Made by a program: the position numbers. Positions 27,001 through 30,000 of a stretch of 39,804 bases of DNA are shown piece after piece; positions within the stretch are counted from its first letter, which is position 1; each line of letters starts with the position of its first letter. Origin of the DNA: a virus (taxonomy: Duplodnaviria > Heunggongvirae > Uroviricota > Caudoviricetes); the IMG/VR virus record IMGVR_UViG_2734482775_000002, positions 1 to 39,804 of that record. The stretch is one strand, 5' to 3'.

Positions 27001-30000
27001 AATTATTCAGACGCGCGAATCTGTTCCGCACAATGCAACAATACTTCTGTCACTTCCTTAAGCGTTACGGTATCGGCATCATCCAGTCCTGCAATTTTTG
27101 CGTGCCTGACAAACGCCGCGCAAAGCTCGTTAAACGCCACCGCCCGTACATCAGCCAGGAAAGCATCTGTAGCCGGGGTTTGCGGCATACCTCCGTCTGT
27201 TGCGCAGATATACGCATCAGATATTTCATCCTGCTCGCCATTAAACACATAGCAACTCTGTACGATAAATTTATTCAGCCGCGCATTCTCCGCCGCCAGC
27301 GTCATGCGTTCTTTCTCAAGTCGGAAAATTTCAGTCACGTATTTGGCGTTTCCCCCCCCCTTGATTAACTCGTTAATTCGTTTGCTTTTAATTTCCAGTT
27401 CATCCAGCAGTTCCAGCACAACCTGAGGTGTGACTTTCATACGAAATGCCAGCAATTTTTGTGGTGTGGCTGCTATTTTTATTGCTTCTGCCGCCTCACG
27501 CAGTGCCTGATAGTTAATTTTTCTCACTGGTTTCCTCCTGGCAAAGCTGGGCGACAATATCGCGATATTTATTCAGCTCCCGCAGCGCGGCACAGACTCG
27601 CTCCCATTTCCGGATATCACTTTTCGCCCGACGCAGTTCGCGGTTTGCCTGTCGCAGCGATGACAGAACCAGATTATCCACTCGCTTCTCAAGCGGCTGC
27701 ACAATGTCCGCCACAGTTTCTGTTTTAATATCTTCCTGTGTTGCAGCTTCCTGTACTGGTAACGCAACACATGCAGGCTGAGGAAAGGCTTTACCATCAG
27801 TTTCCGCTACCGATGCCGCTTTCGGCTCTGCTGGTAAATTACCGCCCGGCATGCAGTAACGAAATTTACCGTTCTGATTAACACGAATCAGACGACCTTT
27901 GCTGATTGCCATTGCCAGCGTTGAAGCCACTTTGCGTGATGTGGTACCAAACAATGTAGCCAGCTCATCAGCCGTTTGTGGTCCGCGTTGTTCAATCGTC
28001 GCGGTTAAATCGCACTCTGAGATTTTCGCTACTGTCGCCGTGGTGGTTTCTTCCGGCTGTTCTTCTGGCGCTAGCTGTTCCTGCTGAACGTTGTTATCAG
28101 CCACACGCCAGGTGTATACGCTTTTATCAACGAAGCCAGCCTTTTTCAGTTCCCACAGCTCGTTCAGTACTTCTTCACGACTGATATCAAGTCGCGCAGC
28201 CAGCTCTACCGACGTGGCTTTTCCCATCGCTTTCAGTGCGTCAAAAACAGTCTCCATTAAAATTTCCTCCCGGTAAAAATCACTTCGCAATTCCTGGCTG
28301 GACGACATTCGGACGCCAGCTCTCCCAGTTAAAATTCACCCATCGCCCGCCGTTCATGGTCATGCGATCCATAATCCGCTCGCCGAGCAATGTTTTCATG
28401 GCCTCATAGTTCAGGTTTGTCAGCATCCCCACGCTGCGCATCGACGCTGTCCGGCGATCAACAATCTGGTGCAGCACCACCTGCTCGTTTTTCGTCTCGC
28501 GCTGAATGCCAATTTCATCAAGAACCAGCAGATCCACTTCGCACAGCTCCCGCAAAAATTTTTCGCCTGACTGCCCGTCGTCATAGCTGGCGTGCAGGGC
28601 GCTCATAACATCAGCCACGGTAACCACAATCACTGTCTGACCGTCTTTCAGCAGGCGATTCCCGATAGCTGCCGCTAAGTGATTCTTCCCGGTACCAGGT
28701 TTTCCGCTGAACGCAAAATTTGTACACCCGGTCATCAGTTCATCGGCGATGGATTTCGCCTGGCTTAACGCGTATCGCTGGCCGTCGTTCTGCACCTGGT
28801 AATTCGCAAATGAGCATTTACGGTGCAACGGCTGGATGCCTGAACGATTCAGAATTTTTTCCACCCGCAACTGACGATTCTGACGGTTGATCTCCTCACA
28901 ACGTTTCTGGCCTTCAGCAAGTTGCCACTCGCGCCACTCCGCTACCGTTCTGAATGGGGCGGTTACATGTGGCGGGGTCAGTCGGCGGATGCGTTCCAGA
29001 ACGCCGCCTGTCGCAATATTTTTCATGGTCCGTTACCCCCTGAAGCCTGGCGGGATCGCACTTTCCGGCAACAAGACAGTGTTAACCTGTCGGAGCAACG
29101 TCTCAGGCCGAACACCTTTCGGCGCGAACAGGCCCTGGTATTCATTGGCGATGCTGTGTCGAATCACCTGCTCAGGTGTAAAACCCTGCTGACGGAATTT
29201 TTCCAGCTCCCGTATCGCCCCGTTAGCGCCCTGCTCCGTTCGAATCGGTTTTCGCAATGCCTGCCTGAACTTAACCCACTCATGCCAGAGTGTTTCCGGC
29301 AACCAGTCAGGCAGCTCGATAGCCTCCGGCTCGAATTTTTTAGACGCTCGTTTTTGGCGAGGGGGATTTAGGGGGAGATCAGTATTTATATCTTCCTCTT
29401 CCTCTTCCTCTGGTAACGCTTTTTGATCCGTTTGTGTAACGCTGTCAGCGTTACCTTTTCGTTTCAGTTCGCGTATTTTTGTTACTCGCTCGTTTGTAAC
29501 CGCCCGTTTTTTAGAGCTTTTTCCGTTATGACGTTCAAAGTTAGGTAGAGAAAGCCCACCGTCATTTTCGACCAGCCATCCAACCTGAATTAACGCATCA
29601 GCAAAACCAGCCATAAAAGTAATGCGATCTATTGCACTTTTTGTAACGCCGCGAGCGTTACAATCTGCGTTACCGTCTATCATTTGTTGATCCGCCCATG
29701 CCCAGAAGCGAATAACCTTCCCTAATGCGGCATCTGGATCAATATTCAGAATCTCAGCAAGCCTGAATATTTCCGGCTTATCCGGCGTAATAACCTCGAG
29801 CTTTATCCAGTTTGAAGCCATTTGTTTTCACCTTGTAACGCTCGCAGCGTTACATTTAACTGATACCGAACAAAACAGTCCGGCACGATTAATTTCAATC
29901 AATGCACTACGACAGAATCGCCGGGCGATCCACCGCCGCTGAAATGTGCTTTCCGGTAAACGGCCTGGACTGCATCATCATGCGCATCAATTGCCGTACT

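Follow-up and report, generated by a model that had tools for sequence, protein, structure and literature searches.

The window described here is the whole 39,804-nucleotide stretch of the IMG/VR virus record IMGVR_UViG_2734482775_000002 (Caudoviricetes). Its replication module carries a 19-base-pair (bp) palindrome, GTAACGC-N5-GCGTTAC (the dyad), in three perfect copies. Two of them lie within an open reading frame (ORF) of 262 amino acids that encodes a predicted replication initiator, and one lies in the spacer between ydaT and this ORF. The original prediction had reported these three palindromes, their placement and two additional half-sites (GTAACGC and GCGTTAC on the strand shown); all three copies are perfect at exactly the positions given, and both half-sites are present. 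Comparative sequence analysis suggests that the dyads are probably recognition sites of the initiator, which together with an adjoining polypurine/AT-rich tract form an origin of replication inside the initiator gene.

The module is encoded on the minus strand in the gene order ydaT, initiator, ydaV, DUF1627, and a spacer of 77 bp separates the ydaT stop (29899) from the initiator ATG (Table 1). Transcription of the initiator gene probably reads through this spacer from the ydaS/ydaT promoter. YdaV matches NCBIfam PRK12377 (E = 8e-154) and DnaC (4e-91), as well as the Pfam families IstB_IS21 and Bac_DnaA. No further match to the dyad, even with up to two mismatches allowed, was found elsewhere in the 39.8-kb window. 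By chance 0.09 copies were expected, and three were reached in none of 100 shuffles. The exact 7-mers GTAACGC and GCGTTAC occur 16 times in the window, eight of them inside 29413-29853. The two dyads within the initiator gene, called site 1 and site 2, are dispersed about 200 bp apart and are not in tandem; the centre-to-centre distances of the window dyads are 192 and 207 bp. No DnaA boxes were found in the segment 29395-29900, and no other repeat cluster hinting at an alternative origin was found in the replication module.

Each in-gene dyad is accompanied by an extra half-site. The half-site of the site-1 cluster is centred 12 bp from the neighbouring half-site and stands where the family has the ancestral left arm of site 1. 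In the Rac-type branch a four-codon insertion (GNAD-CNARGVT) added a half-site, which produced the arrangement of two direct half-sites and one inverted half-site at site 1. The half-site beside the polypurine tract is 23 bp centre to centre from the nearest arm of site 2, a distance that is 11-12 bp in most relatives.

Table 1. Coordinates of the dyads, half-sites, tract, genes and protein domains of the replication module in the window, with the neighbouring immunity genes
Feature	Position	Strand	Remarks
Upstream dyad	29835..29853		GTAACGCTCGCAGCGTTAC; -32 to -14 from the initiator ATG; perfect match
Site-1 dyad	29643..29661		GTAACGCCGCGAGCGTTAC; gene +160; perfect match
Site-2 dyad	29436..29454		GTAACGCTGTCAGCGTTAC; gene +367; codons of disordered inter-domain linker; perfect match
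Extra half-site, site-1 cluster	29667..29673		Gene-sense GTAACGC at +148
Extra half-site adjoining polypurine tract	29413..29419		Gene-sense GCGTTAC at +402
Polypurine tract into AT-rich core	29376..29412	-	Gene-sense CAGAGGAAGAGGAAGAGGAAGA into TATAAATACTGATC; from sequence; candidate DNA-unwinding element and recombination joint
Specificity cassette, 506 bp	29395..29900		N-domain codons, all dyads and half-sites, ydaT-initiator spacer; blastn
Initiator ORF	29033-29821	-	262 amino acids
N-terminal winged-helix-like domain	29447..29821	-	Initiator codons 1-125; proposed reader of the dyads
Acidic linker and C-terminal domain	29033..29446	-	Initiator codons 126-262; shared with K-12 YdaU, weakly DnaT-like
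ydaV	28280..29026	-	DnaC-like helicase-loader gene directly downstream of the initiator gene; NCBIfam and Pfam matches
ydaT	29899-30321	-
cro/ydaS-like helix-turn-helix gene	30318-30560	-	80-amino-acid Cro-like protein
cI-like helix-turn-helix gene	30657-31076	+	139-amino-acid protein

Conservation of the dyads and their linkage to the N-terminal domain

The N-terminal 135 residues of the initiator have relatives in phages of Escherichia, Klebsiella, Salmonella, Vibrio, Pseudomonas, Xanthomonas/Xylella and Ralstonia. The family of this N-terminal domain (N-domain) is present in at least 594 IMG/VR contigs. It also occurs in prophages from 188 genomes at the species level, among them Planctomycetota, Verrucomicrobiota/Akkermansia and Burkholderiales. 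Thirteen annotated phage loci were scanned first, followed by 116 more de novo, and nearly all of them hold the same dyad twice in the gene, at +148 (+160 in the Rac-type branch) and at +337 to +393. With up to two mismatches allowed per dyad, site 1 is present in 80 of 89 homologous genes drawn from many phyla, site 2 in 77 and both in 74, and outside the genes the same criterion gave one hit in 211,586 control positions. The palindrome, whose conservation in Rac-type prophages the original prediction had named as a check, is therefore conserved in homologous replication modules well beyond them.

The consensus of the family is GTAACGCT-N3-AGCGTTAC(A); its information content is about 2 bits per position in the arms and falls to about 0 bits over the three nucleotides in the centre. 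In gene sense, the dyads of the consensus are flanked by runs of A (aaaa-dyad-Aaaa). Across the family, site 1 and site 2 are separated by 189-231 bp. A fixed helical phasing over this long spacing was considered and rejected, since 192, 207 and 189-231 bp correspond to no fixed multiple of 10.5 bp.

Codon usage at the sites indicates that the dyads are selected as DNA and not as peptide. Site 1 is read as G-N-A-x-S-V-T, and its codons were compared in 64 genes that share this peptide and have a mean pairwise identity of 65% over the first 48 residues. Glycine is encoded by GGT in 63 of 64 genes, asparagine by AAC in all 64, serine by AGC in 52 of 52 and valine by GTT in 62 of 64. At invariant glycine columns used as controls in the same genes, GGT is found in only 4/64, 4/59, 28/57 and 13/45, and at invariant valine columns GTT is found in 13/63 and 21/55; the mean third-position entropy at control columns is 1.44 bits. 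In 16 of the 74 genes site 2 is read in another frame, and the encoded peptide is then, for example, VTPTAL and not GNAxSVT; the dyad is still perfect as DNA. Among 39 distinct close relatives from E. coli and Shigella, 7 of 56 columns vary in the arms (mostly singletons), compared with 13 of 15 in the spacers and 156 of 439 elsewhere. In the same relatives, 1 of 12 third codon positions is variable in the arms, against 76 of 134 in the rest.

The sites leave their mark on the initiator as a duplicated peptide. In the window this is GNA-D-CNARGVT (29643-29673, residues 50-60) and GNADSVT (29436-29456, residues 123-129); epsilon15 has two copies of SAxxAD, and Raharianne has two of VDGxAST. In AlphaFold2 (AF2) models, both in-gene dyads fall in codons of low-confidence loop or linker segments (residues 48-60 and 125-170), with a predicted local distance difference test score (pLDDT) below 50. 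Judged from these models, such codons are where a constraint on the DNA costs the protein least.

The sequence of the dyad differs between lineages, more than seven of which have a dyad of their own, and both copies in a genome always change in concert. Epsilon15, phiPSA1, Klebsiella BUCT711 and Ralstonia RPZH6, whose N-domains have about 34% identity, carry two copies of GTCCGC-N7-GCGGAC. Ralstonia Raharianne carries two copies of GTAGACG-N6-CGTCTAC, and a Planctomycetales metagenome-assembled genome carries two copies of GTTGCGC-N5-GCGCAAC, while other genomes have GTCACGC or CTAACGC at both in-gene positions. The dyad type is predicted by the N-domain and not by the host, the neighbouring genes or the type of C-terminal domain. 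Two phages of one genus, RPZH6 and QkW1 of Ralstonia, are 87-96% identical in the flanks and unrelated at gene positions +24 to +372. RPZH6 has an epsilon15-type N-domain with GTCCGC dyads, and QkW1 has a GNA-type N-domain with GTAACGC dyads. These comparisons of sequence indicate that the N-domain and the sites co-vary and are transferred as a unit. In epsilon15, half-sites are phased at 11 bp (+54, +65, +78, +89, +100, and again +333, +344, +357, +368), an array that looks more like sites of a DNA-binding protein than like RNA hairpins.

Some further observations were made in individual members of the family. Genes for C5-cytosine DNA methyltransferases directly precede and overlap the initiator gene in epsilon15 (L007:1342-2511) and in Vibrio phage 1.211.B (L009:1504-2508, 3889-4761). 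The chromosome of the planctomycete Stieleria magnilauensis (NZ_CP036432.1) has two initiator modules about 44 kb apart (L111 and L112, at 7.98 and 8.02 Mb) with identical dyads and polypurine tract. A Pseudomonas-type initiator module is found on a 1,551-bp contig in an assembly of the actinomycete Streptomyces hayashii (JAHHIU010000566.1, L165), which is probably contamination and not a true host.

The polypurine tract, the exchangeable cassette and the initiator

A half-site matching the dyad follows site 2 in 64 of the 74 genes, with a gap of 4-5 nucleotides in 53 and of 16 nucleotides in 11; the branch of the window has the gap of 16. This half-site agrees with the dyad type of its lineage (GCGTTAC, GCGGAC, GACTAC or GCGCAAC). 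In most relatives, a polypurine tract of the form (AGAGAAG)n, most commonly CAGAGAAGAGAAGAGAAGAGAAGA, comes directly after the last half-site and is followed by AT-rich bases. The tract of the window is CAGAGGAAGAGGAAGAGGAAGATATAAATACTGATC on the minus strand, and the local GC content is 0.40-0.43 compared with 0.50-0.65 in the flanks. The tract is translated as (P)REEKRREE. All 70 of its arginine codons are AGA, whereas the remainder of these genes, whose mean GC content at third codon positions is 0.64, uses AGA for 18 of 429 arginines. This difference in codon choice indicates that the tract is also selected as DNA. Recombination junctions lie at the same place: homology with K-12 Rac resumes at 29394, and the junction between RPZH6 and QkW1 is the first base of the tract (L178/L179, gene +372).

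The homology of the window to the Rac prophage of K-12 in blastn is limited to 28202-29394 and 29901-30327, which are 93% identical, and the sequence between them is unrelated. Phage TL-2011b matches the window at 29385-29810 only. Because K-12 Rac is homologous in the flanks only and TL-2011b over this inner segment only, 29395-29900 can be regarded as an exchangeable cassette. K-12 Rac has no GTAACGC dyads, and its ydaT-ydaU spacer is 12 bp long. Its ydaV is 93% identical to that of the window at the DNA level, and its YdaT is 95% identical. At least 80% of 28900-30400 is present in 679 of 5,426 complete E. coli genomes. The window carries a specificity allele of the Rac replication module other than that of K-12. 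The immunity genes of the window (30318-31076, Cro-like and cI-like) also differ from the racR/ydaS pair of K-12 Rac despite the 93-95% identity of ydaT and ydaV, and the prophage is a mosaic on both sides of ydaT.

The linker codons of K-12 ydaU (L001:2023-2106) hold repeats of their own, which resemble TTGAACAYCTG: CTTCAACATCTG, TTTGAACACCTG, TTTGAACATCTG and, inverted, TGTTCAAACA. They are found in the same relative position, adjoining the AT-rich joint, and are candidate iterons of the classical oriJ.

The 262-amino-acid initiator gives no Pfam or NCBIfam match. It corresponds to PHROG 2509, 'replication initiation protein' (9e-89), and its linker and C-terminal part is assigned to PHROG 6451, 'primosomal protein'. 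Its sole link to lambda O is PHROG 678, 'O-like', which matches residues 77-236 (3.6e-26); with no Pfam or NCBIfam hit, the protein does not belong to the O family. The ORF had been described as YdaU-like, and this description applies to the C-terminal part only. In BLASTP, K-12 YdaU aligns to residues 139-262 (124 amino acids, 79% identity), while the N-terminal 138 residues remain unaligned; the N-domain is unrelated to YdaU/DUF1376, and the window initiator has no DUF1376-type N-terminal domain. In RefSeq the allele of the window is named 'hypothetical protein' and that of K-12 'YdaU family'.

The C-terminal domain weakly resembles that of DnaT (2ru8; residues 170-262, E = 0.0027). For the N-domain, neither sequence nor profile comparison with the PDB gave a match, and a Pfam run on ten N-domains gave only noise. 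The N-domain was modelled with helices at residues 16-25, 29-46, 61-68 and 73-80, which are followed by a beta-hairpin (84-91) and then by a long, basic helix; the mean pLDDT is 73, and the model is similar to winged-helix DNA binders.

Proposed origin function and competing explanations

The computational evidence covers the reality of the sites, their selection at the DNA level, their linkage to the N-domain and a tract selected as DNA. From these we infer that the N-domain binds the sites, that the DNA is looped and unwound and a helicase loaded, and that the upstream copy has a role. In the proposed mechanism, dimers of the winged-helix-like N-domain would bind each 19-bp dyad, whose half-sites are 12 bp apart centre to centre, and each complex would be extended over the additional half-sites, which follow at a phase of about 11-12 bp (23 bp in the window). 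The two in-gene clusters, about 200 bp apart, would then be bridged into a single nucleoprotein complex that destabilizes the polypurine/AT-rich tract adjoining the last half-site. The DnaT-like C-terminal domain and the DnaC-like YdaV would recruit host DnaB. The third dyad may be an accessory of the Enterobacterales sub-branch that serves as an autoregulatory roadblock or operator, or as a third anchor of the origin. The leading idea of the original prediction, that these are origin or initiator-binding sites as in lambda, is supported by the DNA-level selection, by the co-variation and co-transfer with the N-domain and by the adjoining tract.

Several points weigh against an origin at this place. 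In the searchable literature, no experimental data on binding or replication were found for this initiator family. The layout is unlike that of the tandem lambdoid iterons, with clusters 189-231 bp apart at a variable spacing that is not helically phased, and looping is therefore speculative. The conservation of the tract could have a cause other than unwinding. No sigma-70-like promoter is predicted in the 77-bp spacer, so that the upstream dyad has no predicted promoter to act on, and this copy alone could work as an RNA hairpin. Rac-type prophages are frequently replication-defective, and the element in this genome may therefore be a fossil.

Among the other explanations, it is conceivable although unlikely that the dyads are only autoregulatory operators of the initiator and that replication starts elsewhere. 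The upstream dyad is located directly 5' of the Shine-Dalgarno sequence AAGGTGA and ends 13 bp before the ATG. It is limited to the Enterobacterales (Rac-type) sub-branch, where it travels with the gene: relatives from Erwinia, Serratia, Pantoea, Mixta and E. coli have it at -33 to -44 next to several different, unrelated upstream sequences, sometimes with additional half-sites, and it is lacking where the ATG directly adjoins the upstream gene. Inverted repeats serve plasmid Rep proteins as operators for autoregulation, and the inverted repeat near the rep start of iteron plasmids is a possible analogy for this copy. All of the evidence that links the dyads to the N-domain would fit operators equally well. 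However, the sites conserved throughout the family are the two in-gene dyads and not the upstream one, and a DNA-selected polypurine/AT-rich tract beside the last half-site has no obvious role in repression. In addition, no promoter is predicted near any dyad, and the module offers no other repeat cluster from which replication might start.

It is quite improbable that the dyads act as RNA hairpins, either in the sense mRNA, where they would affect stability, processing or translation, or as antisense terminators. The leader RNA predicted for the initiator gene folds unusually well (101 nucleotides, -29.7 kcal/mol, z = -3.9), and in it the upstream dyad forms a perfect 7-bp stem with a loop of 5 nucleotides beside the Shine-Dalgarno sequence. 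Upstream of this hairpin the leader holds another one, GUGCCGGACUGUUUUGUUCGGUAU (29858-29886, minus-strand RNA). On the plus strand, 29436-29454 looks like a terminator, with CTTTTCGTTT after it (to 29464), and the A-runs of the consensus agree with this explanation; both the A-runs and the terminator-like appearance could come from lysine codons, DNA bending or antisense termination. Against hairpins, the copies within a genome are identical and change together by lineage, while independent compensatory drift is expected of stems. Unpaired direct half-sites phased at 11-12 bp make no sense as RNA. Furthermore, one terminator-like match was found where 1.7 were expected, and the sense orientation has no U-run.

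Recognition by another protein, such as the CII-like YdaT, a cI/Cro-type regulator or a host factor, is very improbable. The upstream dyad is in the ydaT-initiator spacer, a dyad would suit any dimeric helix-turn-helix protein, and a sequence resembling the YdaT box lies close by at 29886-29901. The box footprinted for YdaT of K-12 Rac is ATGATT-N6-AATCAA (PMC11879457), and the CP-933P box is TTGATT-N6-AATCAA (PMC9986795). The dyads do not match the resulting YdaT/CII-type operator, (A/T)TGATT-N6-AATCAA. YdaT was rejected as the binder because it is 95% identical to the K-12 protein, which recognizes a different box in a prophage without dyads, and because matches to this box occur elsewhere in the window. 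Dyad-bearing relatives lack ydaT and have unrelated immunity regions. A host factor is argued against by the phages of Ralstonia, Pseudomonas and Salmonella/E. coli, which carry differing dyads that match the type of N-domain. The alternative raised in the original prediction, operators for another dimeric regulator such as YdaT, thus found no support.

Repeats resembling the YdaT box (TGATT-N6-AATCA) were found at 29886-29901, 30312-30327, 30619-30634 and 27875-27890, and six box-like matches were counted where 2.05 were expected. The repeat at 30312-30327 is a perfect box that covers the start codon of ydaT, the same placement as in K-12 Rac. The repeat at 29886-29901, ACGATTAATTTCAATCAA, has one mismatch and is found at the ydaT stop, where the ydaT-initiator spacer begins. 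Of the other repeats, one is in the cI/cro intergenic region and one within the DUF1627 gene. Since a YdaT tetramer can bridge two boxes, YdaT might have a further site of action where the replication genes begin.

Finally, the idea that the dyads merely follow from a repeated peptide, or are a chance repeat without function as DNA, can practically be dismissed: in most genes both in-gene copies are in the same frame and encode GNAxSVT or its lineage equivalent, but synonymous sites are frozen, site 2 can be read in another frame, the peptides fall in a disordered loop and linker, one copy is non-coding and chance accounts for far fewer copies than are seen.

Relation to known origins and significance

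Lambdoid origins lie within the initiator gene and are swapped together with the initiator N-domain. The proposed origin is like those of lambda (ori-lambda in gene O), P22 (gene 18), phi80 and 21/82/Stx in that 19-bp dyad-symmetric sites are located in the initiator gene near linker codons, an AT-rich, strand-asymmetric tract adjoins the sites, and a gene for a helicase loader follows. The N-domain and the sites are likewise exchanged as one specificity cassette. It differs in that the initiator is not of the O family and belongs to an N-domain family that is uncurated. Lambdoid origins have between four and six iterons in tandem, spaced by about 20 bp, whereas the window has two dyad clusters about 200 bp apart, one of them inside the codons of the DNA-binding domain. 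A near-invariant polypurine tract, (AGAGAAG)n or (GAGGAA)n, takes the place of the AT-rich region of lambda. The C-domain is DnaT-like, its partner is DnaC-like and not lambda P, and in this branch there is a third site upstream.

The ydaU-ydaV region of K-12 Rac (the oriJ region) shares the gene order, the flanks (93% identical) and the C-domain (79% identical) with the window. Unlike the initiator of the window, YdaU has a DUF1376-type N-domain, and its gene has other linker repeats in place of GTAACGC dyads. The iteron plasmids pSC101, F, R6K and P1 also have a winged-helix-like initiator and repeated sites beside an AT-rich region. Their iterons are tandem direct repeats that are bound by monomers and located outside rep, whereas here every full site is a dyad, the gene itself contains two of them, and the upstream dyad has no predicted promoter. 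The ori and crr of satellite phage P4 are two separated clusters of initiator-binding repeats that are both needed in cis, which is a precedent for bridging. The alpha protein of P4 is a primase-helicase, its repeats are unrelated, and its clusters are about 4.5 kb apart and outside the codons of a DNA-binding domain.

No description of this origin architecture was found in the searchable literature, which lacks most papers from subscription journals, among them the older work on oriJ. GTAACGC was found there in primer sequences only, and the polypurine tract in papers on Drosophila satellites only. The lambda-type principle is classical, and what is new is the breadth, the imprint on the coding sequence and the conserved tract. 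With about even confidence, it can be proposed that the family represents an undescribed, pan-bacterial architecture of phage origins with an uncurated family of winged-helix initiators, in which the sites imprint a duplicated peptide (GNAxSVT, SAxxAD or VDGxAST) and the tract of rare AGA codons is both the unwinding element and a universal joint for cassette recombination.

If the origin proposed here is correct, origins could be predicted at the sequence level in a very large number of temperate phages and prophages of wide taxonomic range. Among them would be the Rac-type elements of E. coli/Shigella, epsilon15-like phages of Salmonella, phages of Xanthomonas, Xylella, Ralstonia and Pseudomonas, and prophages of Akkermansia and Planctomycetota, whose initiators are currently labelled just 'hypothetical' or 'replication initiation protein'. 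A minimal fragment would be defined for building replicons or for mapping prophage induction in hosts without genetic tools. The family would also provide a natural system for the way in which overlapping constraints at the DNA and protein levels shape one gene, for the exchange of initiator/origin specificity through cassette recombination at a conserved joint, and for the contribution of a homopurine tract to the opening of an origin.

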